Notes under the pieces: model-generated
Databases searched by the model: none
Seen by the model: the letters and a program-made list of their open reading frames with translations, nothing else
Told to the model about the DNA's origin: nothing
Program-made: the position numbers and the translations under genes
Sequence record: OK076929.1
Strand: one strand, 5' to 3'
DNA from: Escherichia phage vB_EcoM_C2-3
DNA: 64,000 nt
Part shown: positions 1,640 to 63,465 of the stretch, piece by piece
Numbering within the stretch: position 1 is the stretch's first letter
Layout: each line of letters opens with the position of its first letter

Positions 1640-1937
1640 GTCGCTACCGGTAAGTCGTCGGACTGATGTTCCCTGGAGTATAGTTTCCTCCCACAGTTTT
1701 ACTGTGTTCTGGCTCTTTACTATCACAGCAGAAACGGCGCACCGAATTATCGATTCGAGGAAATATCTTTGCCGTAAGCCGAGTAGCGTTTTTGACGGAA
1801 CGTTCGGATATGGTCGAGATATGGCCTTTTAAAAATATTGAGTAGCGTCAACTACTTAATAACCGGGTTCGAATCCCGGCGTTTCGTACAAACACTTGCC
1901 TTAGCAGGTGGAACCCCGACAAGGTTGCCGCAAGGCT
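1640..1937 (+). ncRNA. candidate small stable RNA region (tRNA-like T-arm element, no credible ORF)
   Basis: About 300 nt GC-richer segment without ORF, contains ccgggttcgaatcccgg T-arm-like hairpin, ends at intrinsic terminator; T4 encodes small stable RNAs next to its tRNAs. Confidence 0.35.
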
Positions 1938-1966
1938 TAGCCCCGACCGAAAGGTTGGGGCTTTTT
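1938..1966 (+). terminator. intrinsic terminator hairpin (ccccgacc-gaaa-ggttgggg + T-run)
   Basis: 8-bp stem with GNRA loop followed by cttttt. Confidence 0.6.
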
Positions 1967-1968
1967 GG

Positions 1969-1976
1969 TATAAATA
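1969..1976 (+). promoter_or_regulatory. late promoter (TATAAATA)
   Basis: Exact TATAAATA about 40 nt upstream of ATG at 2015. Confidence 0.5.
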
Positions 1977-2014: not shown

Positions 2015-2488
2015 ATGAAATCATATACTCAATTTTTAAATGAAGCGGTGTTAAATGAAGCATCTAGCACCGAAATTCAAGCTGTTGCAAAAGCTGCCAT
2101 TGCCGCGGGTAAATATTCCTATAAAGATGCTTCTGATGAATCACGATTCCAGTTTGCACGCGACATGAAAGCGGAAGGATTTACGGGAAATGCAGTTAGT
2201 ATGGCCTGGAAAAGTTTAGTTGCTACTGGCGCTGCTTTTGCAAAGGCTTCGGGTAAACCTGCTCCTAAAGCAGATCCTAAAGCGGCACAAGAAAAAAATA
2301 TCGTTAAAGGAATTATCGCTAAATATGAAGCTATCCTTAAAGAGCTTTTAGTAATCAAAACCGAAGGCCAAAAGTTAGCCCGTGCTTATAGTTTCAAAGA
2401 TAATCCACATGCTCATGACCTAGAGTATGTTGAAGACATCCAAAAAATTATTAAAGACCGCATTTGGTCTGCTAAACAAATCAAATAA
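2015..2488 (+). CDS. internal-protein-like polypeptide with capsid-targeting-sequence-like N-terminus (MKSYTQFLNEA)
   Basis: N-terminus matches T4 internal protein CTS pattern MK-S/T-Y-x-x-F-L/I-x-E; Ala/Lys-rich body; ORF track start 1838 rejected as extension. Confidence 0.55.
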   Translation: MKSYTQFLNEAVLNEASSTEIQAVAKAAIAAGKYSYKDASDESRFQFARDMKAEGFTGNAVSMAWKSLVATGAAFAKASGKPAPKADPKAAQEKNIVKGIIAKYEAILKELLVIKTEGQKLARAYSFKDNPHAHDLEYVEDIQKIIKDRIWSAKQIK

Positions 2489-2495
2489 CATTCTT

Positions 2496-2523
2496 AGCCC
2501 CGACCAAAAGGTTGGGGCTTTTT
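2496..2523 (+). terminator. intrinsic terminator hairpin (second copy of the 1938-1966 hairpin)
   Basis: ccccgacc-aaaa-ggttgggg followed by cttttt; near-identical to 1938-1966. Confidence 0.6.
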
Positions 2524-2656
2524 GGTATCTAGGCCTTTCCGGGCCTCTCTAGGCATCATTTAGTTTCTATCCTTTATAATATATTATCCTATCCTTTGAT
2601 TTCCACTCCCTGCCCTAGAATTCCCCAAAACTTTTTAAAAATTTTTTCACAAAACT

Positions 2657-2690
2657 GTTTACAAGACTGTTCTTCTATGGTACTATACAA
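2657..2690 (+). promoter_or_regulatory. T4-type early promoter (GTTTAC -35, TACTAT -10)
   Basis: gtttacaagactgttcttctatggtactatacaactatc; repeated cassette also at 19201 and 45896. Confidence 0.55.
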
Positions 2691-2717
2691 CTATCAACTA
2701 CTGATATAGAAAACAAC

Positions 2718-2993: not shown

Positions 2994-3023
2994 GTTTACA
3001 CAGGCTCATGATTGAGATATTAT
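2994..3023 (+). promoter_or_regulatory. early promoter (GTTTAC, 18 bp, TATTAT) with -10 inside inverted repeat
   Basis: gtttac 2994-2999, tattat 3018-3023; ggctcat/atgagcc inverted repeat flanks -10. Confidence 0.5.
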
Positions 3024-3049
3024 GAGCCTATAACTTTGAGGAGAACATT

Positions 3050-3382
3050 ATGAAACGTAACTTTAGTAAAGATTTTTGTAATAGAAATTATTATCCTGAA
3101 GAGCTTTTTGAATCTAAGGACTTTAAAGAGTTTAACGAACGTTCTCAAAACATGCCTGTACAATGGGTGTTAGATTATGCCAAACGTATCTTTGAAGGTG
3201 TACGTTGGTTCAGTCCTGATGATGAAGCCCCATATTTTCAAAGGGCATGGTCTATAGTCAATCAAGCTTATATTGATGCTTTAGAAAATATTAATATTAT
3301 GGATGATGATGCTTTGTTAATCATCGATGAGTCTATTAATAATAGTATCGATAAATTTATTGATGAATTGGACGAAGAATAA
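3050..3382 (+). CDS. hypothetical protein (110 aa)
   Basis: ORF track; GAGGAG SD. Confidence 0.55.
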   Translation: MKRNFSKDFCNRNYYPEELFESKDFKEFNERSQNMPVQWVLDYAKRIFEGVRWFSPDDEAPYFQRAWSIVNQAYIDALENINIMDDDALLIIDESINNSIDKFIDELDEE

Positions 3383-3412
3383 GTTTACAAACTCTTGGGA
3401 GTAGAGTATAAT
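3383..3412 (+). promoter_or_regulatory. early promoter (GTTTAC, 18 bp, TATAAT) with inverted repeat around -10
   Basis: gtttac 3383-3388, tataat 3407-3412, gggagta/tactccc repeat. Confidence 0.5.
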
Positions 3413-3456
3413 ACTCCCACGGATTATAAAACCCTTAATTAACTAAAGGAAATGTT

Positions 3457-6863: not shown

Positions 6864-6894
6864 GTTTACTTTCTCCTAGAATTGTGATAGTATA
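6864..6894 (+). promoter_or_regulatory. early promoter upstream of denV
   Basis: gtttac 6864-6869, tagtat -10 about 18 bp downstream. Confidence 0.45.
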
Positions 6895-6918
6895 TTCACA
6901 GTTACTTGGAGGGATAAA

Positions 6919-7335
6919 ATGACTCGTATTAATTTGACTTTAGTATCTGAACTTGCTGATCAACATTTAATCGCAGAATACCGTGAATTGCCGCGTGTTT
7001 TTGGTATAGTTCGTAAGCATGTGGCAAACGGTAAGCGCGTTAAAGATTTTAAAATATCTTCTAAATTTATTTTAGGTTCTGGTCATGTTACTTTCTTTTA
7101 CGATAAGTTAGAATTTTTGCGAAAGCGTCAATCGGACATTATAACGGAATGCTTAAAACGCGGGTTCAGTATAAAAGATACTGAAGTTCCTGACATCAGC
7201 GATATTCCAGTAGAATGGAAAAATGATTATAATCCATGCAAATCAGCTATTAAGTTGAGTCAACAACGACTCGATGAAAAAATTTTAATGAAGCCACACT
7301 GGTATAAGTATTACGGCAAAAATATTTACATTTAA
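6919..7335 (+). CDS. denV: endonuclease V (pyrimidine dimer DNA glycosylase)
   Basis: 138 aa, recognised as T4 endo V ([29 protein letters not shown]...). Confidence 0.9.
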
Positions 7336-7481
7336 ATAACATGGGAATAACCTGGACCTCATGATTCTGTGAGGGATTCCCGCCAACCTGTAATAAGGTC
7401 GAGCCCAAGTGCGGTAATGGGTAAATACAGAAATGGACAATTCATGCGCCATGGAATGGCCCAAACCTAGAGAGAACAAAA

Positions 7482-8021
7482 ATGAGAACATTTTTAACTG
7501 GTCCTTATCTATCCCTGATGAATGCTTTTACACACCATTCTGATGCTAGAGTAGAAGAAATTTGTAAAAACGAATATATCCCGCCATTTGAAGACTTACT
7601 TAAACAGTATTGTACACTTCGACTAGATGGTGGGCGTCAATCTGGTAAATCAACTGCAGTAACTAATTTTGCCGCTAATTGGTTGTATGACGGTGGAACA
7701 GTTATTGTTCTTTCTAATACTTCAGCTTACGCTAAAATTTCCGCAGATAATATTAAAAAGGAATTTTCGCGTTATTCTAATGATGATATACGTTTTCGTT
7801 TATTTACTGATTCTGTGCGCAGTTTTATTGGTAATAAAGGAAGCAAGTTCAGAGGTTTATCACTTTCGCGAATTTTGTATATAATTGATGAGCCTGTCAA
7901 ATCTCCTGATATGGATAAGATTTATAGTGTCCATATTGACACTGTACACTGCTGCTGTAATATTAAATGTTGCATTGGTGGTATTACTCGTCCACAGTTT
8001 TTCGTAATCGGAATGCAATGA
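7482..8021 (+). CDS. hypothetical P-loop protein (179 aa)
   Basis: Walker A-like GGRQSGKST; Cys-rich C-terminus. Confidence 0.5.
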   Translation: MRTFLTGPYLSLMNAFTHHSDARVEEICKNEYIPPFEDLLKQYCTLRLDGGRQSGKSTAVTNFAANWLYDGGTVIVLSNTSAYAKISADNIKKEFSRYSNDDIRFRLFTDSVRSFIGNKGSKFRGLSLSRILYIIDEPVKSPDMDKIYSVHIDTVHCCCNIKCCIGGITRPQFFVIGMQ

Positions 8022-9476: not shown

Positions 9477-9506
9477 GTTTACTTTTCCTCTTGACTGTGG
9501 TATAAT
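9477..9506 (+). promoter_or_regulatory. early promoter upstream of regB
   Basis: gtttac 9477-9482, 18 bp, tataat 9501-9506. Confidence 0.55.
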
Positions 9507-9533
9507 TTTTCTATCAGTTAAGAGGAGAACAAC

Positions 9534-9995
9534 ATGACTATCAATACAGAAGTTTTTATCCGTCGAAATAAGCTTCGTCGTCATTTTGAGTCGGAGTTTC
9601 GTCAAATTAACAATGAGATTCGTGAGGCATCAAAAGCAGCAGGAGTCTCATCGTTTCATCTAAAATATTCTCAACATCTTCTTGATCGTGCAATTCAACG
9701 GGAGATTGATGAGACATATGTTTTTGAATTATTCCATAAAATAAAAGACCATGTTTTAGAAGTTAATGAATTCCTGAGTATGCCTCCGCGTCCTGACATT
9801 GACGAGGATTTTATTGATGGGGTTGAATATCGTCCTGGACGTTTAGAAATCACAGATGGAAATCTTTGGCTTGGATTTACGGTTTGTAAGCCTAATGAGA
9901 AGTTCAAAAACCCGTCACTTCAATGCAGGATGGCAATTATCAACAGTCGTCGTTTACCAGGAAAGGCTTCTAAAGCAGTAATTAAAACTCAATGA
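9534..9995 (+). CDS. regB: RegB site-specific endoribonuclease
   Basis: 153 aa, recognised as T4 RegB; strong AGGAG SD. Confidence 0.9.
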   Translation: MTINTEVFIRRNKLRRHFESEFRQINNEIREASKAAGVSSFHLKYSQHLLDRAIQREIDETYVFELFHKIKDHVLEVNEFLSMPPRPDIDEDFIDGVEYRPGRLEITDGNLWLGFTVCKPNEKFKNPSLQCRMAIINSRRLPGKASKAVIKTQ

Positions 9996-13654: not shown

Positions 13655-13679
13655 TAGTCTCCTTCGGGAGACTTTTTTC
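13655..13679 (+). terminator. intrinsic terminator (agtctcc-ttcg-ggagact + TTTTTT)
   Basis: 7-bp stem, UUCG loop, T6 run. Confidence 0.65.
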
Positions 13680-13688
13680 ATTTTACCG

Positions 13689-13718
13689 GTTTACTTTCCG
13701 TTTGAGCTGTGGTACTAT
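13689..13718 (+). promoter_or_regulatory. early promoter
   Basis: gtttac 13689-13694, tggtactatacaactatc cassette. Confidence 0.5.
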
Positions 13719-13746
13719 ACAACTATCGGATAAAGAGGAGAACATC

Positions 13747-14500: not shown

Positions 14501-14537
14501 GTTTACAAGTTGGCAAGATTATGATATAGTAATCTTG
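14501..14537 (+). promoter_or_regulatory. early promoter with -10 inside perfect 8-bp inverted repeat
   Basis: gtttac 14501-14506; caagatta (14514-14521) / taatcttg (14530-14537) flank tgatatag. Confidence 0.5.
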
Positions 14538-14665
14538 TCAACTGCCAAGGAGAAGAGAATGAAAGTTTTGTTTGTTGTGTATGTGATGATTCAATATAAT
14601 TATCCAATGTTTACTTATAATCTGGTGAACAACATTATTGATATTATTCAAAGGAGTATGTAATT

Positions 14666-17226: not shown

Positions 17227-17257
17227 AGGGAGCCTTCGGGCTCCATTTTTTTTTTTA
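17227..17257 (+). terminator. intrinsic terminator (gggagcc-ttcg-ggctcc + T10)
   Basis: UUCG-loop hairpin followed by ten T. Confidence 0.7.
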
Positions 17258-17280
17258 TTTCAAAAATTTTTCACAAAACT

Positions 17281-17310
17281 GTTTACAAACATAAAGCTTT
17301 ATGGTACTAT
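17281..17310 (+). promoter_or_regulatory. early promoter
   Basis: gtttac 17281-17286, tggtactatacaactatc cassette. Confidence 0.5.
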
Positions 17311-17346
17311 ACAACTATCAAAACAAACACTTAAACGGAAAACAAA

Positions 17347-17496
17347 ATGAAAATTACACCAATTGAAGTAAAAAAGTTGATTGATACAGAAGAAATTTCA
17401 GAGTGTTTTGAAAGTTTCTTAGAAGACGCAACTGAAGATAACGCGGTTTATCTCGCCCAGAAAATTATCGAAACTTATTTGGAGAAGAATCAATGA
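17347..17496 (+). CDS. hypothetical small acidic protein (49 aa)
   Basis: Small ORF, ATGA-coupled to downstream ORF. Confidence 0.35.
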   Translation: MKITPIEVKKLIDTEEISECFESFLEDATEDNAVYLAQKIIETYLEKNQ

Positions 17497-17756
17497 CAGT
17501 TTACGTAGATGTTTTAATGAATCATGGATGGAAACTTCGCGGTCATCCAACTAAAAATTGTCATATGTTCACTGATGGAGATATTGAAGAGCTTCACGAA
17601 ATGGCAGAAGCAATAGGAATGAAACGTTCTTGGTTTCAAGATAAACGCATTAAACATTATGACTTACACGCTCGGCGACGCCAAAAAGCTGTAGAACTTG
17701 GAGCTGTAGAAGTATCTCGTCGCGAAGCAGTAAAAATTTGGCAAACATTAAAATAA
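17493..17756 (+). CDS. hypothetical protein (87 aa)
   Basis: ORF track. Confidence 0.5.
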   Translation: MTVYVDVLMNHGWKLRGHPTKNCHMFTDGDIEELHEMAEAIGMKRSWFQDKRIKHYDLHARRRQKAVELGAVEVSRREAVKIWQTLK

Positions 17757-17759
17757 ATT

Positions 17760-17789
17760 GTTTACAGAAGGGTAGTAGTGTGATACTAT
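17760..17789 (+). promoter_or_regulatory. early promoter
   Basis: gtttac 17760-17765, tactat -10. Confidence 0.45.
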
Positions 17790-17825
17790 TACCCTATCAA
17801 AACAAATGTGAAATTGGAGAATAAA

Positions 17826-19200: not shown

Positions 19201-19230
19201 GTTTACAAGACTGTTCCTCTGTGGTACTAT
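19201..19230 (+). promoter_or_regulatory. early promoter (repeat cassette)
   Basis: gtttacaagactgttcctctgtggtactatacaactatcaact identical to the 45896 copy. Confidence 0.55.
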
Positions 19231-19258
19231 ACAACTATCAACTACGGAGGAACACAAA

Positions 19259-19786
19259 ATGAACGCTAAAGATATTTTCAACCTGGTAAATTACAACGAT
19301 GGTAAATTTAAATCTGAAGCACAAAGCAAGTTCTTTAATGACATCTCAATCGGAGGTGAAATCACGGTTGATGGAGGACAAATTTACAAATCCCGTTGGA
19401 ATTGGATTGTTATTATCGATGAGATTGGTATTGTAGAAATTTACAAGAATACGAATAAAAATCGTACATTACACTGGTCTCGTGATACTAACGAACAGTA
19501 CAAAAAGGATAAAGCATCTAAGTTATCTCGTGTAACTCAAGAAGATATTGAGTTCATCAAGAAAGATATTTTGATGTATGATAACTTAATTGCTGAAGAG
19601 CAAGCTGTTATTGATAAATTTGATGAGATTAAAGCTTCTCGTGAAATTCCTGATTTTATGAAAGAATCAGTAAATGAACGATACTCTCTCATTTCAGAGC
19701 GTATTGAAACTTACAAAAAGCAAAGAGCTGAACGCCAGAATACTCTTCGGAAGTTTGAAGAACGGTTAAAGACGGTACTCGCATAA
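19259..19786 (+). CDS. hypothetical protein (175 aa)
   Basis: ORF track; GGAGG SD. Confidence 0.55.
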   Translation: MNAKDIFNLVNYNDGKFKSEAQSKFFNDISIGGEITVDGGQIYKSRWNWIVIIDEIGIVEIYKNTNKNRTLHWSRDTNEQYKKDKASKLSRVTQEDIEFIKKDILMYDNLIAEEQAVIDKFDEIKASREIPDFMKESVNERYSLISERIETYKKQRAERQNTLRKFEERLKTVLA

Positions 19787-25546: not shown

Positions 25547-25576
25547 GTTTACACTGATGAAGAAACAGTATATAAT
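25547..25576 (+). promoter_or_regulatory. early promoter
   Basis: gtttac 25547-25552, 18 bp, tataat 25571-25576. Confidence 0.5.
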
Positions 25577-25616: not shown

Positions 25617-26102
25617 ATGATTACAGTAGATAAGTGGTTTAGAATTAATCGTGTTGATACAGGGCTATGTAATTACTGGCCGGAACTTAGTGCAGGTACT
25701 GTCTTTAAAGTTCGTGAACTTGCAAAAGAATGCGAAGATGATATAGAACCTGATACTGGAATTATTGAAATTGAACTTTCCGACGGAAAGATTATTAACA
25801 TCTATGATAAGCCAATTACATACTGGTGTTTGTGGAATACTGAATCCGTTGAAAATGGCGAAATTGAAGAAGTTGTAGAGCGAACTAATCAAGTTGTTCA
25901 GAAGCCTAAAGCCGATTTTCAAGGTGAACGTATTTCATACGCATTAGCTAAATTAGCTGCACAAGAAAATAACGATGGCTATGAAGGTAACCTGATGCAA
26001 GCTGCCGCAGAGTACATTGAATGGCTTGAAACTCAAATTTCTTTTTCTGACCAAAAGATTCGGCAATATAAGCGATTGCATCAAATGTTTTATAATACTT
26101 GA
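25617..26102 (+). CDS. pin: protease inhibitor Pin-like protein (161 aa)
   Basis: 161 aa and position between nrdC and gene 49 match T4 pin; assignment by position and length only. Confidence 0.45.
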   Translation: MITVDKWFRINRVDTGLCNYWPELSAGTVFKVRELAKECEDDIEPDTGIIEIELSDGKIINIYDKPITYWCLWNTESVENGEIEEVVERTNQVVQKPKADFQGERISYALAKLAAQENNDGYEGNLMQAAAEYIEWLETQISFSDQKIRQYKRLHQMFYNT

Positions 26103-26138: not shown

Positions 26139-26315
26139 ATGAAAACCGAATTGGTTTATACTGAAAAGTTAAATGGCGGTAAGGTTTGGAAACTTTTTAT
26201 TAAAGGACATTCTACGGACCCTCATATGACCACTTGCGTAGGAACCTATTCTCGTCCTACTAAAAAGATGATTCGACAGTATAAACGATTGCATCGAATG
26301 TTTTACAATACTTAA
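26139..26315 (+). CDS. hypothetical small protein (58 aa) sharing C-terminal 14 aa with upstream ORF
   Basis: C-terminus IRQYKRLHRMFYNT duplicates IRQYKRLHQMFYNT of 25617 ORF; about 44-bp direct repeat. Confidence 0.4.
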   Translation: MKTELVYTEKLNGGKVWKLFIKGHSTDPHMTTCVGTYSRPTKKMIRQYKRLHRMFYNT

Positions 26316-26326: not shown

Positions 26327-26351
26327 ACCCTTATCTATTTAAGGTAAGGGT
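26327..26351 (+). promoter_or_regulatory. RBS-sequestering hairpin upstream of gene 49
   Basis: accctta / taagggt inverted repeat with AAGG SD in loop/arm, 7 nt before ATG 26358. Confidence 0.4.
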
Positions 26352-26357
26352 TTTATT

Positions 26358-26831
26358 ATGTTATTGACTGGCAAATTATACAAAGAAGAAAAACAAAAAT
26401 TTTATAATGCACAAAACGGTAAATGCTTAATTTGCCAACGAGAACTAAATCCTGATGTTCAAGCTAATCACCTCGACCATGACCATGAATTAAATGGACC
26501 AAAAGCAGGAAAGGTACGTGGATTGCTTTGTAATCTATGCAATGCCGCAGAAGGTCAAATGAAGCATAAATTTAATCGTTCTGGCTTAAAGGGACAAGGT
26601 GTTGATTATCTTGAATGGTTAGAAAATTTACTTACTTATTTAAAATCCGATTACACCCAAAATAATATTCACCCTAACTTTGTTGGAGATAAATCAAAGG
26701 AATTTTCTCGTTTAGGAAAAGAGGAAATGATGGCCGAGATGCTTCAAAGAGGATTTGAATATAATGAATCTGACACTAAAACACAATTAATAGCTTCATT
26801 TAAGAAGCAGCTTAGAAAGAGTTTAAAATGA
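26358..26831 (+). CDS. 49: endonuclease VII (Holliday junction resolvase)
   Basis: 157 aa, recognised as T4 gp49; Cys-rich zinc site CLICQ ... HDHE. Confidence 0.9.
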   Translation: MLLTGKLYKEEKQKFYNAQNGKCLICQRELNPDVQANHLDHDHELNGPKAGKVRGLLCNLCNAAEGQMKHKFNRSGLKGQGVDYLEWLENLLTYLKSDYTQNNIHPNFVGDKSKEFSRLGKEEMMAEMLQRGFEYNESDTKTQLIASFKKQLRKSLK

Positions 26832-28645
26832 CAATTGAAAAAGAAATTGAAGGATTGATTCATAAAACTAATAAAGACCTTTTAAACGAGAATGCTAATA
26901 AAGATTCTCGTGTTTTTCCAACTCAACGGGACCTTATGGCTGGTATTGTGTCTAAACACATTGCCAAAAATATGGTCCCGTCTTTTATTATGAAAGCGCA
27001 TGAAAGCGGAATTATTCATTTCCATGATATTGATTATTCCCCTGCTCTTCCATTTACTAATTGTTGTTTAGTAGATTTAAAAGGAATGCTTGAAAACGGA
27101 TTTAAGCTTGGTAATGCGCAGATTGAAACTCCTAAATCAATTGGCGTTGCTACTGCAATTATGGCACAAATTACTGCACAGGTTGCTTCTCACCAATACG
27201 GCGGAACGACTTTTGCTAATGTAGATAAAGTACTTTCTCCTTATGTTAAACGCACCTATGCAAAACATATTGAGGATGCAGAAAAATGGCAAATCGCCGA
27301 TGCACTGAATTATGCCCAATCTAAAACAGAAAAAGACGTATACGATGCATTCCAAGCTTATGAATATGAAGTAAATACTCTCTTTAGTTCAAACGGACAG
27401 ACTCCTTTTGTAACAATTACATTTGGTACAGGAACTGACTGGACTGAACGAATGATTCAGAAAGCAATTTTGAAAAATCGTATTAAAGGTCTTGGTCGTG
27501 ATGGGATAACTCCTATTTTCCCTAAACTTGTTATGTTCGTTGAAGAAGGTGTTAACCTTTATAAAGACGACCCGAACTATGATATTAAGCAGCTTGCTCT
27601 AGAGTGTGCAAGCAAAAGGATGTATCCTGATATTATTTCAGTTAAGAACAATAAAGCTATCACCGGTTCATCTATTCCTGTTTCTCCAATGGGTTGTCGT
27701 AGTTTCTTGAGTGTATGGAAAGATTCGACTGGTAATGAAATTCTTGATGGACGTAATAATCTTGGTGTTGTAACACTGAATCTTCCTCGTATTGCGTTGG
27801 ATTCTTATATTGGAACACAGTTCAATGAACAGAAATTTACTGAATTGTTCAATGAGCGAATGGATTTATGTTTTGAAGCTTTGATGTGTAGAATTAGTTC
27901 CTTAAAAGGAGTTAAAGCGACTGTTGCTCCTATTCTTTACCAAGAAGGTGCATTCGGGGTTCGTCTTAAACCTGATGACGATATAATTGAGTTATTTAAA
28001 AATGGTAGAAGTTCAGTGTCTTTAGGATACATTGGTATTCACGAATTGAATATTCTTGTCGGTCGTGATATTGGACGAGAAATTTTAACTAAAATGAATG
28101 CTCATCTTAAACAGTGGACTGAAAGAACTGGATTTGCTTTTAGTTTATATTCGACTCCTGCTGAAAACCTTTGTTATCGCTTCTGTAAACTTGATACAGA
28201 AAAATATGGAAGTGTAAAGGATGTTACTGATAAAGGCTGGTACACTAATAGTTTCCATGTTTCAGTAGAAGAAAATATTACTCCGTTTGAAAAGATTTCT
28301 CGTGAAGCCCCATATCATTTCATTGCGACAGGTGGTCACATTTCTTATGTTGAACTTCCTGATATGAAAAATAACCTAAAAGGTCTTGAGGCTGTCTGGG
28401 ATTATGCTGCACAACATTTAGATTATTTTGGTGTTAACATGCCAGTAGATAAATGTTTTACGTGTGGAAGTACCCATGAAATGACTCCTACTGAAAACGG
28501 ATTTGTTTGTTCTATTTGTGGAGAAACTGACCCTAAAAAGATGAACACAATAAGAAGAACATGCGGATATCTTGGAACTCCTAGCGCTGTCCCATGGAAT
28601 TTAGGTAAAATGAAAGAAATGGTAAAACGAGTAAAACATGCATAG
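26828..28645 (+). CDS. nrdD: anaerobic ribonucleoside-triphosphate reductase NrdD (uninterrupted)
   Basis: 605 aa continuous ORF; C-terminal zinc ribbon CFTCG...CSICG and glycyl radical motif RTCGYLG. Confidence 0.95.
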   Translation: MTIEKEIEGLIHKTNKDLLNENANKDSRVFPTQRDLMAGIVSKHIAKNMVPSFIMKAHESGIIHFHDIDYSPALPFTNCCLVDLKGMLENGFKLGNAQIETPKSIGVATAIMAQITAQVASHQYGGTTFANVDKVLSPYVKRTYAKHIEDAEKWQIADALNYAQSKTEKDVYDAFQAYEYEVNTLFSSNGQTPFVTITFGTGTDWTERMIQKAILKNRIKGLGRDGITPIFPKLVMFVEEGVNLYKDDPNYDIKQLALECASKRMYPDIISVKNNKAITGSSIPVSPMGCRSFLSVWKDSTGNEILDGRNNLGVVTLNLPRIALDSYIGTQFNEQKFTELFNERMDLCFEALMCRISSLKGVKATVAPILYQEGAFGVRLKPDDDIIELFKNGRSSVSLGYIGIHELNILVGRDIGREILTKMNAHLKQWTERTGFAFSLYSTPAENLCYRFCKLDTEKYGSVKDVTDKGWYTNSFHVSVEENITPFEKISREAPYHFIATGGHISYVELPDMKNNLKGLEAVWDYAAQHLDYFGVNMPVDKCFTCGSTHEMTPTENGFVCSICGETDPKKMNTIRRTCGYLGTPSAVPWNLGKMKEMVKRVKHA

Positions 28646-29468
28646 GTATTATATAATTTATAAAATAACAAATATAATTAATTCAAAGGAATATATCGGT
28701 GCGCATAGCACCGATAACATAAATGACGGTTATATGGGGTCAGGAACATTGATTCGTGCCGCTTTATTAAAATATGGTAGAAAAAATTTTAATAAAGAAA
28801 TTTTACATGTTTTTGATAATGAAAAACAAATGTATGATAAAGAAGCTGAACTCGTAACCGAAGAGTATTGTCTAAAAGAAAATACATATAATATTAAACC
28901 TGGTGGAAAAGGTGGAACTGCCTATGAACAGACACTTGAACATCGCCGCAAAAATAGTTTAGCAAATAAAGGTAAAAAGAGAACAGAAGAAACTAAAATA
29001 GCTATTTCACGTGCTTTAAAGAAATATAAACGTACGCCAGAGCATCAAGCAAATTTAAATAAAGCCGTAAGCATAGCTATGAAGCGAAAAGATGTTAGAA
29101 GTAAATTAGCTGGAGAGCGGTCTGAGAAAGATAAATTATCTATATCAAACGGTGTTAAAAAATATTACAATTCTTTGAGTGAAGAAGAACGCGAACTTCA
29201 TCGCAAGCGAATTATTGAAGGTAAAAAGAATTCTCCCATGTCATTGGAATCTAGACAAAAGCTTTCAAAAGCTTTAAAAGGACTTCAAGTTGGTTCAAAA
29301 AATCCAATGTATGGAAAAATTTCTCCAACTAGCAAAACCGTTTCAGTTGACGGTATTAAATATGATTCAATTAAAAAGTGCTCAAATGCCATAAAAGTTT
29401 CTAGACATCTTATACTAAAACGCTGTAATTCTACTGATGAAGCTTGGAAAAATTGGATATTATTATGA
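28638..29468 (+). CDS. free-standing GIY-YIG homing endonuclease (Seg-like)
   Basis: N-terminal YYIIYKITN...KEYIGAHS GIY-YIG motif, Lys/Arg-rich DNA-binding tail; overlaps nrdD stop and nrdG start. Confidence 0.7.
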   Translation: MHRYYIIYKITNIINSKEYIGAHSTDNINDGYMGSGTLIRAALLKYGRKNFNKEILHVFDNEKQMYDKEAELVTEEYCLKENTYNIKPGGKGGTAYEQTLEHRRKNSLANKGKKRTEETKIAISRALKKYKRTPEHQANLNKAVSIAMKRKDVRSKLAGERSEKDKLSISNGVKKYYNSLSEEERELHRKRIIEGKKNSPMSLESRQKLSKALKGLQVGSKNPMYGKISPTSKTVSVDGIKYDSIKKCSNAIKVSRHLILKRCNSTDEAWKNWILL

Positions 29469-30878: not shown

Positions 30879-30899
30879 GGGCCCTCTGGGCCTTTCTTT
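30879..30899 (+). terminator. intrinsic terminator hairpin (gggcc-ctctg-ggcct + T-rich)
   Basis: GC stem followed by tttctttct. Confidence 0.5.
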
Positions 30900-30973
30900 C
30901 TCACATTCTGTATATTACCATTCTAAGCTATCGTTCCTTTCTTATCATTCCCTAAAATATTTTTCACAAAGTT

Positions 30974-31003
30974 GTTTACAACAAGTTCAAACCGTGGTAT
31001 TAT
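30974..31003 (+). promoter_or_regulatory. early promoter
   Basis: gtttac 30974-30979, 18 bp, tattat 30998-31003. Confidence 0.5.
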
Positions 31004-31033
31004 TAACATATGAATTACCTTTGAGGAATTGAT

Positions 31034-31216: not shown

Positions 31217-31502
31217 AACGTATCGTCGTAAAGACTTGAAAGTTCGTGATTATGACTATTTTGGAAAGCGTAAAGCTCCAGACGGTGTAAGTCATAAAGA
31301 TATGGTTGAAAACATTTTTCGCTCAGATAAATGGCGTAGAATGAAAGGCATTGATTCAGAAGTTAAAGATGAGTTAAATCGTCAATTACGCGGTGAAGTA
31401 AGAAAGTTGAAAAAATCAGTTTACATTGACGATGATTTTGATTATAATACTTCTCAACGAGTTGCTAAACGTAAATCAAACGAGTGTTATCGTTACAGCT
31501 GA
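31209..31502 (+). CDS. hypothetical basic protein (about 97 aa)
   Basis: Start moved to ATG 31209; Lys/Arg-rich. Confidence 0.45.
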   Translation: MGKTYRRKDLKVRDYDYFGKRKAPDGVSHKDMVENIFRSDKWRRMKGIDSEVKDELNRQLRGEVRKLKKSVYIDDDFDYNTSQRVAKRKSNECYRYS

Positions 31503-32223: not shown

Positions 32224-32439
32224 ATGAACGAAGCTCTTATTAACGATTTACGTCTTGCTGGGTATGAAGTAAATACAAATGGCATTGGTTTAACTCAAAT
32301 TGAAGGAAACGGATTCATCCTTGAGTATGAATTTAGCCAATGGTGGTTATATGCCAATTACGGCGAATTGATTGAATATGTTGATCAATTTGATTCACTA
32401 GATGCAGCTCTTGAAGCGGCTAAGTTGATGAATGTATGA
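32224..32439 (+). CDS. hypothetical protein (71 aa)
   Basis: ORF track. Confidence 0.5.
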   Translation: MNEALINDLRLAGYEVNTNGIGLTQIEGNGFILEYEFSQWWLYANYGELIEYVDQFDSLDAALEAAKLMNV

Positions 32440-32705
32440 AATTTATTAATATTTCTATTACTATTGAAAATTATGGCATTTTCTATGTTGACCAATACAT
32501 GAAAATTTCATTTTTCCCAAATAAGACTGGTGTTGGATATTGGGAAAGCCATGTTTCTGAATTAAATGAAAGTGAATATGTTAGTACACATGAAAAGTTT
32601 TTAGACTTTTTATATCATGCTGATCTAACTAGTCATTATATAGATATTCATGAATTTAAAAAGATGATGGAGAAAGTATTCCAAGCATACTGTTTACTTA
32701 GATAA
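32436..32705 (+). CDS. hypothetical protein (89 aa)
   Basis: ORF track. Confidence 0.5.
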   Translation: MKFINISITIENYGIFYVDQYMKISFFPNKTGVGYWESHVSELNESEYVSTHEKFLDFLYHADLTSHYIDIHEFKKMMEKVFQAYCLLR

Positions 32706-32716
32706 CTGATATCCTC

Positions 32717-32755
32717 TATGCTTTAAGATAGATCTTCAAATATTATGATATAATA
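32717..32755 (+). promoter_or_regulatory. candidate MotA-dependent middle promoter upstream of gene 55
   Basis: MotA-box-like taTGCTTTA at 32717-32725; downstream TATTAT/TATAAT; spacing not canonical. Confidence 0.3.
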
Positions 32756-34037: not shown

Positions 34038-34211
34038 ATGAACATCCAGACTTCTGAAATAGATTATAATAAAATTCGTTCCTCTAAAGTAGAAATGATG
34101 AGACGCTTTAAAGAGTCTCATGATAAAGCTAAAGCAGAAGGAACTATAAAATATAAGCGCATAAAATTTAAAAGTTCTAACGAGCCTCTGTATGGCGTAT
34201 TATGTGGATAG
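34038..34211 (+). CDS. hypothetical small protein (57 aa)
   Basis: Small ORF below size cutoff ending at hairpin. Confidence 0.35.
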   Translation: MNIQTSEIDYNKIRSSKVEMMRRFKESHDKAKAEGTIKYKRIKFKSSNEPLYGVLCG

Positions 34212-34225
34212 GAGCTTCGGCTCCT
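34211..34225 (+). terminator. hairpin (ggagc-ttcg-gctcc), weak terminator
   Basis: UUCG-loop stem; poor T-run. Confidence 0.35.
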
Positions 34226-34277
34226 ATATTGCTTTATAAATTTTTGGTAAAATAAACCAAAACAAAGAGGATATTAA

Positions 34278-36936: not shown

Positions 36937-37123
36937 CATTAATGATGAATTCATAGCAAATATTGATTATACCGAAGAAGATTCTAGATATGTTGGAATA
37001 ATTTATATCACATCAAAAGCAGCACAAGGTGTTGTTTGCATGGCTGAATTTGATGAATACTTTTTAGATTATGATGATATGATAGAATGGTCTAAAAGAT
37101 ACATTAAAAGGAATCTTTTGTGA
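36908..37123 (+). CDS. hypothetical protein (about 71 aa) whose N-terminus is duplicated in downstream HNH gene
   Basis: N-terminus FSTFDINDEFI; 19-bp ttgacattaatgatgaatt repeated at 36933 and 37136. Confidence 0.4.
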   Translation: MHTVKFSTFDINDEFIANIDYTEEDSRYVGIIYITSKAAQGVVCMAEFDEYFLDYDDMIEWSKRYIKRNLL

Positions 37124-37974
37124 AGAATTTTAAACTTGACATTAATGATGAATTTTTAATAAAGGAATTAGTTGAAAAATTAGCGTTGAGTGAAGAAGAC
37201 GCCAAGTCTTACATTAATTTTATTTCTATGAATTCAACTGTTAAAACTCCAGGTAAAACGGAAGCACATCACGTGCTTCCTAAATCAATATTTCCTGAAT
37301 ATTTAAAATCTACATGGAATTTAGTTAATTTAAGTCATTTTAATCATTTTAAAGCACATTTCTTATTAGCAAAAGGTAAAAATGGAAAAATGCTAAATGC
37401 TTTAAATAGAATGATGTCAGGAAAAACATATAAAAATTTATCTTTAGCCGAAGTTGATTTAATAGCTGCTGAATATAGTTTTATAAAACAAGATGTAAGT
37501 GACACAATATCAAAAAGGCTTCAACAATATTATTCAAATCCGCAAAATAGAAATGCTGCTAGAGAAAGGGCATTAAAATATTTTTCAGTAGCAAAAAATA
37601 GGAAAGATAACAAAGAAAGATTAAATAGTTTTAAAACAAAACAAAAAATTTCAATGGCTTCAAGGGAATGGTTTAATAACGAAGAAAATAAAATTAAACA
37701 CCAAAAGGCTGTTCGTGCTGCTTTATCAAAACCTGAATATAAAATAGCTATATCAAATTCAGTAGCTGCTAGTTGGAAAAATCCGGAGATTAGAAAAGCT
37801 CATATAGCATCTCGACGAAAAGGCTATCATTGGGATAATAAAGATAAATTGTATGAATTGTGGATATCATATAATCGTCCTAAACATGTGATGTTTAGGA
37901 AAATGTTAGTTAAGAACGGATATCCAATAGAGGCTTCATTACAGGCTTTAGTTAAAGAATTTTCTTCATTGTGA
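37120..37974 (+). CDS. free-standing HNH homing endonuclease
   Basis: HNH-like motif HHVLPKS...NLVNLSHFNHFKAH; GTG start overlapping upstream stop; between 47 and 46. Confidence 0.65.
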   Translation: MKNFKLDINDEFLIKELVEKLALSEEDAKSYINFISMNSTVKTPGKTEAHHVLPKSIFPEYLKSTWNLVNLSHFNHFKAHFLLAKGKNGKMLNALNRMMSGKTYKNLSLAEVDLIAAEYSFIKQDVSDTISKRLQQYYSNPQNRNAARERALKYFSVAKNRKDNKERLNSFKTKQKISMASREWFNNEENKIKHQKAVRAALSKPEYKIAISNSVAASWKNPEIRKAHIASRRKGYHWDNKDKLYELWISYNRPKHVMFRKMLVKNGYPIEASLQALVKEFSSL

Positions 37975-45790: not shown

Positions 45791-45812
45791 AGGGACCTCC
45801 GGGTCCCTTTTT
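45791..45812 (+). terminator. intrinsic terminator (agggacc-tccg-ggtccct + TTTTT)
   Basis: 7-bp stem, T-run. Confidence 0.65.
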
Positions 45813-45895
45813 CATACAAGTAATATAAATCTATACTTATGAAAAACAGATGATTCTGGACCTTTAGAATTCCCTAAAAAATTTTTCACAAAACT

Positions 45896-45925
45896 GTTTA
45901 CAAGACTGTTCCTCTGTGGTACTAT
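45896..45925 (+). promoter_or_regulatory. early promoter (repeat cassette)
   Basis: ttttcacaaaactgtttacaagactgttcctctgtggtactatacaactatcaacta; near-identical to 2644-2700 and 19201-19245. Confidence 0.55.
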
Positions 45926-45959
45926 ACAACTATCAACTAATACGGATTTGGAGAATAAA

Positions 45960-46196
45960 ATGAAAATTGTTATGGGATGCTTAGCAGTTTGTTTAGTTGC
46001 ATTAGTAGCAGTTCCATTTGTTAGTGTTGAAAATGATACTCAACCTGTGATTAAATCTAGCACCGTTATTCACACTAATGGTAAAATATCAGTTAAAATT
46101 GATGATAATCTTCATGTGAATACAAATGGATCTTTAGGTGTGCAAATGGGTAATACCTGCATAAGCACTACTGGAGTAATTACTACTTGCATTTGA
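45960..46196 (+). CDS. hypothetical secreted/membrane protein (about 78 aa)
   Basis: Start moved to MKIVMG after GGAG; N-terminal hydrophobic signal-like segment. Confidence 0.5.
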   Translation: MKIVMGCLAVCLVALVAVPFVSVENDTQPVIKSSTVIHTNGKISVKIDDNLHVNTNGSLGVQMGNTCISTTGVITTCI

Positions 46197-46999: not shown

Positions 47000-47740
47000 A
47001 TGATTAGTGACTCTATGACAGTTGAAGAAATCCGTCTTCATTTGGGGCTTGCATTAAAAGAAAAAGATTTCGTAGTTGATAAAACTGGTGTTAAAACTAT
47101 TGAAATTATTGGCGCATCATTTGTAGCAGATGAACCGTTTATTTTTGGCGCTCTTAATGATGAATACATTCAGCGTGAACTTGAATGGTATAAATCTAAG
47201 AGCTTGTTTGTTAAAGATATTCCAGGTGAAACACCAAAGATTTGGCAGCAGGTAGCATCTTCTAAAGGCGAAATTAACTCGAATTATGGTTGGGCTATTT
47301 GGTCAGAAGATAACTATGCCCAGTATGATATGTGTTTAGCTGAACTTAGTCAAAATCCTGATTCTCGACGTGGTATCATGATTTATACTCGTCCATCCAT
47401 GCAATTTGACTACAATAAAGATGGTATGTCAGATTTCATGTGTACTAATACAGTACAGTACCTGATTCGTGATAAGAAAGTCAATGCGGTTGTTAGCATG
47501 AGAAGCAATGATTGCTGGGCAGGCTATCGTAATGATTATGCTTGGCAAAAATACGTACTAGATAAATTAGTATCTGATTTGAATGCAGGCGACCCATCGC
47601 GGCAATATAAAGCAGGTTCTATTATATGGAACGTTGGAAGTCTTCATGTGTACGAAAATCAGTTTTATTTAGTTGACCATTGGTGGAACACCGGTGAGAC
47701 TCATATTGCTAAAAAGGATTATACTGGAAAATGGAAGTAA
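47000..47740 (+). CDS. 42: dCMP hydroxymethylase gp42
   Basis: 246 aa, recognised as T4 gp42. Confidence 0.95.
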   Translation: MISDSMTVEEIRLHLGLALKEKDFVVDKTGVKTIEIIGASFVADEPFIFGALNDEYIQRELEWYKSKSLFVKDIPGETPKIWQQVASSKGEINSNYGWAIWSEDNYAQYDMCLAELSQNPDSRRGIMIYTRPSMQFDYNKDGMSDFMCTNTVQYLIRDKKVNAVVSMRSNDCWAGYRNDYAWQKYVLDKLVSDLNAGDPSRQYKAGSIIWNVGSLHVYENQFYLVDHWWNTGETHIAKKDYTGKWK

Positions 47741-50816: not shown

Positions 50817-52244
50817 GTGGTAGAAATTATTCTTTCTCATCTCATATTTGATCAAGCTTATTTTTCAAAAGTTTGGCCATATATGGATTCAGAATATTTT
50901 GAAAGTGGTCCAGCTAAAAATACATTCAAATTAATTAAATCCCATGTTAATGAGTATCATAGCGTTCCATCTATTAATGCGTTAAATGTTGCATTAGAAA
51001 ATAGTTCATTTACTGAAACAGAATATTCTGGTGTAAAAACACTTATTTCAAAACTGGCTGATTCTCCAGAAGACCACAGCTGGTTAGTAAAAGAAACAGA
51101 AAAATATGTTCAGCAAAGGGCGATGTTTAATGCTACGTCTAAAATAATCGAAATTCAAACTAATGCTGAGCTTCCTCCGGAAAAACGAAATAAGAAAATG
51201 CCAGATGTAGGTGCTATTCCTGACATCATGCGCCAAGCATTATCAATTTCATTTGATAGCTACGTTGGTCATGATTGGATGGATGACTATGAAGCGCGTT
51301 GGCTATCTTATATGAATAAAGCTCGTAAGGTTCCATTTAAACTCAGAATTCTAAACAAAATTACTAAAGGCGGAGCTGAGACTGGAACACTGAACGTTTT
51401 AATGGCTGGCGTTAACGTTGGTAAATCATTAGGATTGTGTTCATTAGCGGCAGATTATTTACAGCTCGGACATAATGTTCTTTACATTTCCATGGAAATG
51501 GCAGAAGAAGTCTGTGCTAAACGTATTGACGCTAATATGCTTGATGTTTCTCTTGATGACATTGATGATGGGCATATTTCTTACGCTGAATATAAAGGAA
51601 AAATGGAAAAATGGCGTGAGAAATCTACCCTTGGTCGTTTAATCGTTAAACAGTATCCTACTGGTGGAGCAGACGCTAACACATTCAGGTCTCTCTTGAA
51701 TGAATTGAAGCTCAAGAAGAATTTTGTTCCAACAATCATTATTGTCGACTATCTAGGTATTTGTAAATCTTGCCGCATTAGAGTTTATTCAGAAAATAGT
51801 TACACAACTGTTAAAGCTATCGCAGAGGAATTGCGTGCTCTGGCTGTTGAAACCGAAACTGTTCTTTGGACTGCAGCTCAGGTTGGTAAACAGGCTTGGG
51901 ATTCTTCCGATGTTAACATGAGCGATATTGCAGAATCTGCTGGTCTTCCAGCAACAGCTGATTTTATGCTTGCGGTCATTGAAACCGAGGAGCTAGCAGC
52001 TGCTGAACAACAACTTATTAAGCAAATCAAATCACGATATGGTGATAAGAATAAGTGGAATAAGTTTTTGATGGGTGTTCAAAAAGGAAATCAAAAATGG
52101 GTAGAAATTGAACAAGATTCTACTCCAACTGAAGTGAGTGAAGTAGCAGGTTCACAACAGATTCAGGCTGAGCAGAATCGCTATCAAAGAAATGAATCCA
52201 CTCGAGCTCAGTTAGATGCTTTGGCAAATGAATTAAAATTTTAG
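50817..52244 (+). CDS. 41: replicative DNA helicase gp41
   Basis: 475 aa, Walker A GVNVGKS, recognised as T4 gp41; GTG start. Confidence 0.95.
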   Translation: MVEIILSHLIFDQAYFSKVWPYMDSEYFESGPAKNTFKLIKSHVNEYHSVPSINALNVALENSSFTETEYSGVKTLISKLADSPEDHSWLVKETEKYVQQRAMFNATSKIIEIQTNAELPPEKRNKKMPDVGAIPDIMRQALSISFDSYVGHDWMDDYEARWLSYMNKARKVPFKLRILNKITKGGAETGTLNVLMAGVNVGKSLGLCSLAADYLQLGHNVLYISMEMAEEVCAKRIDANMLDVSLDDIDDGHISYAEYKGKMEKWREKSTLGRLIVKQYPTGGADANTFRSLLNELKLKKNFVPTIIIVDYLGICKSCRIRVYSENSYTTVKAIAEELRALAVETETVLWTAAQVGKQAWDSSDVNMSDIAESAGLPATADFMLAVIETEELAAAEQQLIKQIKSRYGDKNKWNKFLMGVQKGNQKWVEIEQDSTPTEVSEVAGSQQIQAEQNRYQRNESTRAQLDALANELKF

Positions 52245-52280
52245 TTTACAAGCTGACAAGACTATGGTATAGTAGTCTTG
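52244..52280 (+). promoter_or_regulatory. early promoter with -10 inside perfect 8-bp inverted repeat
   Basis: gtttac 52244-52249; caagacta (52257-52264) / tagtcttg (52273-52280) flank tggtatag. Confidence 0.5.
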
Positions 52281-52302
52281 TTGGTTAAATGAGGAGATTG
52301 TT

Positions 52303-56097: not shown

Positions 56098-56105
56098 TAA
56101 TTCAA

Positions 56106-56129
56106 GGACTCCTTCGGGAGTCCTTTTTT
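56106..56129 (+). terminator. intrinsic terminator (ggactcc-ttcg-ggagtcc + TTTTTT)
   Basis: 7-bp stem, UUCG loop, T6. Confidence 0.7.
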
Positions 56130-56138
56130 CATTTTACC

Positions 56139-58241: not shown

Positions 58242-58271
58242 GTTTACTTTCCTTTCTAACGATGATATGAT
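58242..58271 (+). promoter_or_regulatory. early promoter
   Basis: gtttac 58242-58247, tatgat -10. Confidence 0.45.
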
Positions 58272-58297
58272 AGCTTCTGAAGTATACGGAGGCTATC

Positions 58298-58921
58298 ATG
58301 ATTATTAATCTTGCAGATGTTGAACAGTTATCTATAAAAGCTGAAAGCGTCGATTTTCAATATGATATGTATAAAAAGGTCTGTGAAAAATTTACTGACT
58401 TTGAGCAGTCTGTTCTTTGGCAATGTATGGAAGCTAAAAAGAATGAAGAGCTTCATCGGCAATTGAATAAAATCATTAAAAAGCATTTAACTAAATCACC
58501 TTATCAATTATATCGTGGTATATCAAAATCGACAAAAGAACTCATTAAAGATTTACAAGTTGGAGAAGTGTTTTCAACGAACAGGGTAGATTCATTTACT
58601 ACTAGTTTGCACACAGCATGTGGGTTTTCTTATGTTGAGTATTTCACTGAAATAATATTTCGCTTAAAAACTGATAAAGCTTTTAATTATTCTGACCATA
58701 TCAGCGATATTATACTTTCTTCTCCTAATACTGAATTTAAGTATACATATGAAGATACTGATGGATTAGATTCAGAGCGTACTGATAACTTAATGATGAT
58801 TGTGCGTGAACAAGAATGGATGATTCCAATTGGAAAGTATAGAATAACTTCTATTTCAAAAGAAAAATTACACGATTCATTTGGAACATTTAAAGTTTAT
58901 GATATTGAGGTAGTTGAATGA
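58298..58921 (+). CDS. modB: ADP-ribosyltransferase ModB
   Basis: 207 aa; R-S-E ADP-ribosyltransferase signature (YRG, STxS region, EQEWMIP). Confidence 0.75.
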   Translation: MIINLADVEQLSIKAESVDFQYDMYKKVCEKFTDFEQSVLWQCMEAKKNEELHRQLNKIIKKHLTKSPYQLYRGISKSTKELIKDLQVGEVFSTNRVDSFTTSLHTACGFSYVEYFTEIIFRLKTDKAFNYSDHISDIILSSPNTEFKYTYEDTDGLDSERTDNLMMIVREQEWMIPIGKYRITSISKEKLHDSFGTFKVYDIEVVE

Positions 58922-63434: not shown

Positions 63435-63465
63435 TGTTTACTTCCTCGGTTAGTTGTGGTATTAT
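63435..63465 (+). promoter_or_regulatory. early promoter
   Basis: gtttac 63435-63440, tattat 63460-63465. Confidence 0.45.

Follow-up and report, generated by a model that had tools for sequence, protein, structure and literature searches.

What are the nearly identical sequences that recur far apart in the early region of Escherichia phage vB_EcoM_C2-3, and are they the places at which its genes are shuffled? We examined a window of 64,000 nucleotides (the whole stretch of DNA that was analysed, from sequence record OK076929.1), in which a first-pass annotation had described a repeat of about 57 bp, several copies of which were said to sit just downstream of a terminator hairpin, and had read these elements as terminator-plus-promoter cassettes that bracket most of the gene blocks unlike those of phage T4. 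We consider it very probable that the repeats are sigma-70 early promoters, some of them paired with terminators, that their copies exchange short patches of sequence with one another, and that they occasionally serve as crossover sites.

Upon comparing the window with public sequences, we found that its first 20 kb matched more than 1,200 phage records (megablast), with the best matches being Tequatrovirus genomes such as vB_EcoM_G29, U115 and YUEEL01 at 96 to 98% identity, and that the whole 64-kb window aligns collinearly with T4 in reverse complement, from 72,774 to 7,673, at ~95% identity. The window is the T4-type early/middle region of a Tequatrovirus, in which the tRNA cluster is followed by e, denV, regB, tk, rI, nrdC, nrdD, 55, 47, 46 and 45, and then by 44, 62, regA, 43, 42, uvsX, 41, 61, 56, modA/B, dda, dexA and motB.2. 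Every gene of the window lies on the + strand, as do all the promoters, terminators and cargo open reading frames (ORFs) whose coordinates are given below. An Rfam scan of the window returned 10 tRNAs only, with no match at the cassettes, and the RefSeq record of T4 is without promoter features.

The repeat was recovered as described. The 57-nt pattern matches exactly at 2644-2700 and 45883-45939 (one base shorter than the end at 45940 given earlier) and nowhere else, with zero matches in shuffles of the window, and the two copies differ at 2 sites, namely the Y and R positions of the pattern. The core reported near 19201 spans 44 nt (19201-19244) and is identical to the copy at 45896, and the two variants are present at 13668-13732 (62%) and 17260-17324 (78%). 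We also observe an additional copy at 30953-31017 (68%) that was absent from the earlier list, and a repeat finder groups all of these into one family of six copies, at 2636, 13668, 17260, 19180, 30953 and 45875. Distinct from the 57-mer family is an exact 28-nt repeat, 13672-13699 and 56123-56150, which spans a terminator tail, an UP-like tract, GTTTAC and TTTCC, and which joins terminator-promoter cassettes 42 kb apart.

Next, we investigated the promoter anatomy of these sites. The pattern GTTTAC-N18-TANNNT occurs at 21 sites on the + strand of the window and at 0 on the − strand, and a looser GTTTAC pattern (N15-19) is found 24 times, 23 times on the + strand, compared with 4.55 expected by shuffling. 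We built a position weight matrix from the 21 sites, and it revealed no more promoters on either strand, although such an overfitted matrix may miss weak variants. When the 21 sites were aligned, an extended consensus emerged, consisting of an A/T-rich upstream tract, GTTTAC, TgTGgTAttATA and then cTAt around the start, with A/T enrichment from −25 to −1 relative to GTTTAC and with the TGn of an extended −10 region at 16/21 sites. The spacer from TTTACx to the TAnnnT −10 hexamer is 17 bp long, as in T4-type early promoters. Nineteen of the 21 sites are intergenic and are followed by a Shine-Dalgarno sequence (SD) and an ATG 20 to 50 nt downstream, the other two being intragenic, and the seven promoter sites examined are kept at collinear positions in T4, RB32, G29, PST and RB14.

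These features are those of T4 early promoters, which host sigma-70 RNA polymerase recognises and which carry GTTTAC at −36 to −31 together with an A-rich UP-like tract (PMC1524935), belong to an 'uber' UP/-35/TGn/-10 type with extra conserved regions (PMC2988021) and, in the T4/PST pair, share the motif TTTACW-N17-TAYWAT (PMC4122927). The sites of the window resemble them in the GTTTAC −35 box, the spacing, TGn, TAnnnT, the A/T-rich upstream tract and the extra conserved start positions (PMC2988021, PMC1524935), as well as in lying upstream of early genes at T4-orthologous positions; we find no essential difference, with individual spacers and leaders varying. The earlier identification of early promoters, several of them just downstream of terminator hairpins, is upheld. 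Each promoter would open an early transcription unit, and downstream of it come a conserved start region, an SD and an ATG. As a separate observation, GTTTAC-N19-TATGCT occurs at 32692-32722, just upstream of gene 55 and at the right edge of an inserted DUF7200 ORF (32436-32705); at this indel boundary it could represent a degenerate promoter, and it was left out of the cassette count.

Hairpins followed by T-runs are present at all five of the places cited earlier (2496, 13656, 17229, 45791 and 56104), with stems of 6 to 10 bp and at least five T in 8. The UUCG loops ascribed to them hold for 13656-13673, 17229-17244 and 56104-56125, whereas the loop is AAAA at 2496-2519 and UCCG at 45791-45808, and loop type does not define a terminator. 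Across the window we count nine convincing intergenic terminators on the + strand, with the sites at 34208 and 30879 being weaker, and the G29 annotation predicts terminators at the homologous hairpins. Six terminators have an early promoter 14 to 138 nt downstream, measured from hairpin to −35 box (2496>2657, 13656>13689, 17229>17281, 30879>30974, 45791>45896 and 56104>56140). Repeat copies thus follow a terminator in several cases, as claimed, with the exception of 56104, whose promoter at 56140 is no copy of the 57-mer.

The first of these terminators (2496..2527) has a 10-bp stem, an AAAA loop and a T-run, and it forms the second copy of a 36-39-nt direct repeat whose first copy (1936..1974), with a GAAA loop, lies downstream of the region homologous to T4 rnaC/rnaD. 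It precedes P2657, the early promoter of e.8 (2636..2700), with an UP-like A/T tract, GTTTAC at 2657 and TACTAT at 2681, which is the first 57-mer copy. The UUCG-loop hairpins at 13656-13673 and 56104-56125 are directly followed by P13689 (13656..13718 with its terminator) and P56140 (56104..56169), respectively, and the UUCG-loop hairpin at 17229-17244 is followed by P17281 (17229..17310). The UCCG-loop hairpin at 45791-45808, after gene 43, precedes P45896, the second 57-mer copy (45791..45939), and a terminator-like hairpin at 30879-30893 with P30974 (30879..31003) forms the sixth pair, which the first-pass annotation had not listed. Outside these pairs, a terminator-like intergenic hairpin at 26327..26359 has no promoter after it, and a UUCG-loop hairpin with a weak T-run follows a-gt.2 at 34208..34235, with T4's mobB site 35 nt downstream. 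With their G+C-rich stem, mostly UNCG loop and T-run, the terminators would close the preceding unit, so that terminator-promoter pairs would act as punctuation marks. The sequence anatomy and the T4-orthologous positions, which we observe directly, point to promoter and terminator activity at these sites.

Does the likeness between copies reflect exchange? Downstream of gene 43 we found three spacer types in 11 genomes, each of which matches a type found at a paralogous site. T4, RB32, G29 and three IMG/VR contigs carry the first, aagactgttcttccatgg or close variants of it, and PST, RB14 and two IMG/VR contigs carry the second, the e.8-type atccctgttcttccatgg or close variants of it, with RB14 having an e.8-type leader there as well. 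In this window the gene-43 site carries aagactgttcctctgtgg, an exact match to the nrdC.8 promoter at 19201 rather than to its orthologs. Furthermore, the window's own e.8 promoter has a chimeric spacer, in which the type of the gene-43 site is combined with the e.8 type of RB14. These mosaic spacers and leaders account for the close likeness of the 57-mers that lie 43 kb apart, and patch exchange of this kind has left three copies in this phage closer to one another than their counterparts in T4 are. The near-identity of some copies exceeds what the promoter consensus needs, and short patches would be swapped by homologous recombination between paralogous copies; the mosaic spacer and leader types thus suggest that promoter copies act as substrates of homologous exchange.

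We then compared gene content by aligning the window with the 70 to 80 kb that are homologous to it in T4, RB32, G29, PST and RB14, chaining collinear blocks and counting each gap of at least 40 nt as an event. The five comparators gave 85 events, which collapse to 48 unique ones, of which 10 touch a cassette at one boundary or more and 7 at both; against T4 alone, a cassette is touched by 4/21 events and by 3/17 window-specific blocks. One or two more events came to light when the edges of comparator-specific DNA were scanned for cassettes. The indels at cassettes are flanked by repeats of 36-39 nt, 28 nt, 47 nt, 14-19 nt and 11-14 nt.

Three modules show this arrangement within the window. 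Between the terminator copies at 1936-1974 and 2493-2531 lies an ORF of 157 aa (2015..2488, phrog_2280). Its slot consists of a single hairpin without an ORF in T4 and PST, is filled in RB14 by another ORF enclosed by the same hairpins, and in G29 carries an additional module along with a third hairpin; the RB32 annotation describes this slot as 'flanked by 34 bp imperfect direct repeat'. The second module (17347..17756) holds two ORFs of 49 aa (phrog_6888) and 87 aa (DUF4031) that are absent from T4, RB32, PST and RB14. It lies between P17281 and P17760, the early promoter of nrdC.10 (17760..17789), which flanks on the right the block 17353-17814, and the motif CTATCAAAACAAA is common to the two promoters just after each −10 box. 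In G29 the P17281 site contains an extra ORF with a 47-nt repeat of 17251-17297 on either side, and overall the extra modules of G29 are flanked by 28-nt and 47-nt cassette repeats. The third ORF, of 78 aa (45960..46196, phrog_4189), is inserted between P45896 and imm.1 and is likewise absent from T4, RB32, PST and RB14. The cargo of all three modules consists of small ORFs of unknown function, and they are presence/absence polymorphisms in the public phage collection, with the full module found in 452/592 matching phage records for 2015-2488, 136/541 for 17347-17756 and 316/513 for 45960-46196.

Replacements from one promoter to the next are seen at e.7, where they extend from P2994, the promoter of e.7 (2994..3023), on the left edge to P3383, the promoter of e.6 (3383..3412), on the right. 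The breakpoints of PST and RB14 lie a single base ahead of GTTTAC at both P2994 and P3383, those of RB32 lie ~52 nt past each GTTTAC, and in other contigs e.7 is deleted between both leaders. Similarly, in the IP locus (the e-to-denV interval, 6864-7482) the left breakpoint lies at P6864, the early promoter of denV (6864..6893), which is the breakpoint of the ipIII/ipII deletion and of the IP-locus replacements. The locus holds no such gene here, ipIII+ipII in T4, Ip4 in RB32 and RB14, and ipIII+ipIV in PST; in T4 each gene of the locus has its own promoter, and the deletion in the window joins the promoters between which T4 ipIII and ipII sit. Short homologies of this kind would sometimes act as crossover points at which small ORFs between two cassettes are added, deleted or swapped, mainly in the e-to-nrdC variable region, which would correspond to the published promoter-early stem-loop (PeSL) model. 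The repeat-flanked indels and the mosaic spacers are directly visible in the alignments, and homologous recombination is the mechanism they suggest.

PeSL cassettes were described in RB49/phi1 by Arbiol et al. 2010 (PMC2839356) and in T4/PST and KVP40/nt-1 by Comeau et al. 2014 (PMC4122927), so the shuffling role that the first-pass annotation mentioned for T4-type phages has indeed been proposed (PMC2839356), and such cassettes are on record for T4/PST (PMC4122927). The term 'gene conversion' is absent from the 2010 PeSL paper (PMC2839356). As in the published cases, the elements here are composites of an early promoter and a stem-loop, repeated in variable regions and flanking small ORFs that differ between relatives (PMC2839356, PMC4122927), the crossovers are located either in the A/T tract upstream or in the stretch from the −10 box to the ATG, and the stem-loops lie upstream of the promoter or overlap the −10 box. 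Six promoters have an upstream terminator and ten others a hairpin overlapping the −10 box (z-score −2.1 or below), and seven events, indels or replacements, are bounded on both sides by cassettes, with flanking repeats of 14 to 47 nt. For the T-even IP loci, repeated early-promoter/stem-loop elements were reported by Repoila et al. 1994, as cited in PMC2839356 and PMC4122927; the IP-locus elements of the window are the same phenomenon, with the window having the emptiest version of the locus.

Unlike in the published PeSLs, however, breakpoints are not statistically more associated with cassettes than with other gene junctions, and cassettes are not preferentially next to ORFs that differ between close relatives. 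We used the other gene junctions as the null model, which is fair because whole-gene indels break between genes, where promoters also sit. Among the 128 gene junctions of the window, 22 bear a cassette, and breakpoints occur at 9/22 cassette junctions versus 37/106 others (odds ratio (OR) 1.29, one-sided p=0.38). Adding 13 loci from five IMG/VR Tequatrovirus contigs gives 10/22 versus 39/106 (OR 1.43, p=0.30), and restricting the analysis to junctions with an intergenic gap of at least 40 nt gives an OR of 0.62 for cassettes. Upon partitioning the window, we observe breakpoints at 6/10 cassette junctions versus 9/33 others in the region 1.9-20 kb (OR 4.0, p=0.066), no trend at cassette junctions in 20-46.5 kb, and breakpoints at 0/6 cassette junctions in 46.5-64 kb. 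A local recombination role of the cassettes in the first 20 kb is therefore plausible. The statement that cassettes bracket most of the gene blocks unlike T4 does not survive this comparison, with 3/17 window-specific blocks and 10/48 events over the five genomes, and, as the annotation had staked that claim on breakpoints coinciding with cassettes, the general claim fails on its own measure. The three largest window-specific insertions are homing endonuclease genes (28638-29468, 37120-37974 and 47731-48372; GIY-YIG/NUMOD3, phrog_314 and phrog_655), whose junctions are tight and whose edges bear neither a promoter nor a terminator cassette. Cassettes explain between about a fifth and a quarter of the observed differences in gene content, the remaining ones being at ordinary tight gene junctions or homing endonuclease genes.

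How firmly, then, can the repeats be read as early promoters that exchange patches and only occasionally guide crossovers? Several points weigh against this reading. Two of the 21 motif matches, at 25547..25576 and 31419..31448, are intragenic and of doubtful function, and promoter and terminator activity in this phage is predicted from its sequence and from T4. Repeat-flanked indels also occur with homologies other than cassettes, namely the pin C-terminal duplication, the tRNA genes and the 5406/5862 event, and breakpoints show no overall enrichment at cassettes, so that the recombination role of cassettes is occasional and not dominant. Additionally, the mosaic spacers could in principle have come from recombination between phages at the orthologous site, which leaves unexplained how the e.8-type sequence first reached the gene-43 site. 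A stronger form of shuffling, in which cassettes are the main vehicles and most gene-content breakpoints lie at them, would be in line with the published PeSL model (PMC2839356, PMC4122927), the ten cassette-bounded events, the extra examples in more contigs and the trend in 1.9-20 kb; we nevertheless judge it improbable, given the few events and blocks that touch a cassette (10/48 and 3/17), the junction ORs of 1.29 to 1.43 (p 0.30 to 0.38) that fall to 0.62 at gaps of at least 40 nt, the 0/6 in 46.5-64 kb, and the largest insertions being homing endonuclease genes without edge cassettes.

The opposite extreme, in which the copies are alike through selection for an optimal promoter sequence, never recombine, and lie near indels by coincidence, is slightly less credible still. 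It is favoured by the unusually long consensus of T4 early promoters (PMC2988021), by most of the 57-mer lying in positions conserved across all 21 sites, and by the missing breakpoint enrichment, yet the 18-nt spacer lies outside the consensus and is shared between sites in a mosaic manner that conflicts with orthology, exact cassette repeats of 28 to 47 nt flank indels, and the same hairpin-flanked slot holds different ORFs in different phages. The scattered, nearly identical copies might also suggest a small autonomous element that moves by transposition or site-specific recombination, and a dedicated recombinase was speculated on in the 2010 PeSL paper (PMC2839356). All copies, however, have a single orientation and occupy orthologous positions in T4 and four other genomes, the repeat search revealed no terminal inverted repeats or target duplications, no transposase lies nearby, and the repeats at indel edges are the cassettes themselves; a transposon-like origin was rejected on the orientation, the positions and the lack of terminal repeats, and we regard a mobile element as extremely unlikely.

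The window holds further differences that involve other sequences. The small ORF 26139-26315 ends in an imperfect copy of the C-terminal coding end of pin (26067-26095 and 26280-26308), and this ~50-nt pin repeat flanks an indel that sets the window apart from T4, PST and RB14, a repeat-mediated event with no promoter or terminator involved. The tRNA genes found by Rfam at 245-1259 number ten here versus eight annotated in T4, and the tRNA cluster is a rearrangement hotspot among the compared genomes, which includes an indel at 995/1152 between 34-nt repeats. Relative to T4, the window is without the nrdD intron with I-TevII (27363), the dam methylase gene (54873) and ipII + ipIII (6908).

What of the promoters that have no terminator upstream? 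We folded each promoter from GTTTAC to the start codon and compared it with dinucleotide shuffles, and at 10/19 intergenic promoters the hairpin was much more stable than the shuffles. In this layout the loop holds the −10 box, and the stem is formed by parts of the spacer (5' arm) and of the leader (3' arm). These hairpins are at 2994-3053 (P2994, z −3.6), 3383-3442 (P3383), 6864-6923 (P6864), 9477-9536, 14501-14560, 17760-17819 (P17760), 19201-19260, 52244-52303, 58242-58301 and 63436-63495. Among the promoters concerned, that of regB, P9477 (9477..9506), has a spacer that pairs with leader and SD in an 18-bp hairpin, P14501 (14501..14530) has a 15-bp hairpin across the −10 box (z −4.7), as does P52244, the promoter of dmd (52244..52273; 15 bp), and P19201, the promoter of nrdC.8 and the 44-nt core copy (19201..19244), has a spacer that pairs with the nrdC.8 SD (z −5.7). 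The spacer of P63436, the promoter of motB.2 (63436..63465), also pairs with the SD (z −5.5), as the spacer of P6864 does with the denV SD, and at P58242, the promoter of modB (58242..58300), a 14-bp hairpin extends from the −10 box and covers SD and AUG. The promoters of nrdC.4 (P22175, 22175..22204), sp (P52747, 52747..52776) and srd (P59577, 59577..59606) are without such a hairpin. The −10-spanning hairpins are without T-runs, and they occur at 10/13 promoters that lack an upstream terminator versus 0/6 that have one (Fisher p=0.003).

The 3' arm contains the SD at P6864, P9477, P19201, P63436 and P58242, where it includes the AUG too, and the SD is left free in the other five of the ten. 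For the five SD hairpins, the predicted pairing of the SD is ~1.0 in RNA that begins at GTTTAC and 0.07 to 0.22 in RNA from the expected +1. Pairing between the 5' part of a promoter and its own leader was far stronger than in chimeras that combine parts of different promoters, with mean folding-energy differences of −9.15 versus −4.73 kcal/mol in the window (a mean as low as that observed arose in 0/20,000 permutations), and the own leader was the best pairing partner for 10/19 promoters. Similar results were obtained for 73 non-redundant promoter clusters from diverged T4-like contigs (−7.65 versus −3.90 kcal/mol; 0/20,000 permutations), in which strong spacer-leader pairing was found in 32/73 cognate pairs versus 7% of chimeras. 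The idea of a gene-specific anti-SD arm was rejected, as chimeric parts occlude the SD as well as cognate ones do (0.61 versus 0.56); SD pairing is therefore generic to pyrimidine-rich spacers, and the extended stem alone is gene-specific.

Upon examining orthologs, we find that the regB hairpin is kept in 20/21, with differing stem sequences and down to 56% protein identity, the denV hairpin in 16/17, again with different stem sequences, the motB.2 hairpin in 7/7, and those of mobD.2a, dmd and modB in all orthologs, whereas hairpin-free promoter sites are without a hairpin in every ortholog. The stems covary across T4-like lineages. RNAalifold, applied to a MAFFT alignment of the regB leaders, gave no structure, since each arm contains single-base indels that shift the lineages relative to one another, and alignment folding was replaced there by folding each ortholog separately. 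Furthermore, the sense strand folds ~2 kcal/mol better than the antisense strand, for which selection of sites was symmetric (29/42, p=0.002), and this indicates a role of the hairpin in RNA. As an observation from RB69-like and related contigs (loci L042, L047-L051 and L034), the regions upstream of regB, denV and nrdC.8 share one promoter-leader family. This family, GTTTACATCTCCTGTAG...TACTATAGACCTATCAACTACAGGAGA, has a built-in anti-SD/SD hairpin and is found in distant T4-like lineages at several different genes, and the repeated cassette there therefore includes the hairpin and the ribosome-binding site (RBS).

Do these hairpins insulate genes from upstream transcription? We hold as a tentative possibility, rather doubtful at present, that about half of the T4-type early promoters are built into a conserved RNA hairpin that insulates the gene from upstream transcripts. 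Read-through RNA would hold the whole hairpin, whereas RNA begun at the promoter itself would be without the 5' arm, and insulation could come about through a translation block, possibly followed by Rho-dependent polarity, or through attenuation or RNA processing. The −10 hairpin would then do the same job as the upstream intrinsic terminator does at other promoters. In T4, the genes e, soc, 49 and I-TevI have a promoter inside an RBS-sequestering hairpin, and all of these are late promoters (PMC3014915). The five SD hairpins of the window are modelled as similar to these in having the 5' arm upstream of the predicted start and the SD in the 3' arm, and they differ in belonging to early promoters, in having the −10 box as the hairpin loop and in being predicted structures. 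The −10-spanning hairpins also differ from published PeSLs in that the promoter-overlapping stem-loops are without T-runs, covary and often include the RBS, for which an RNA role other than simple termination fits. In the literature searched we found no description of an RBS-sequestering hairpin at early promoters, although older T4 literature may cover it.

T4 early promoters and their terminators are textbook elements. The core of our finding is already known, since it concerns T4 early promoters and terminators and since a possible role of the cassettes in recombination was published in 2010, and in 2014 for T4/PST. To this the analysis adds a quantitative caution, in that breakpoints in this 64-kb region show no preference for cassettes when measured against a gene-junction null, and more of the gene-content differences are explained by homing endonuclease genes and by ordinary tight junctions than by cassettes. 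It also provides evidence, directly from sequence, for patch exchange between promoter copies as far as 43 kb apart, as the recombination model needs. The covarying −10-spanning hairpins may be the only part of the findings that is new, and, if their proposed role is true, they could matter for the way in which T4 separates immediate-early from read-through expression.

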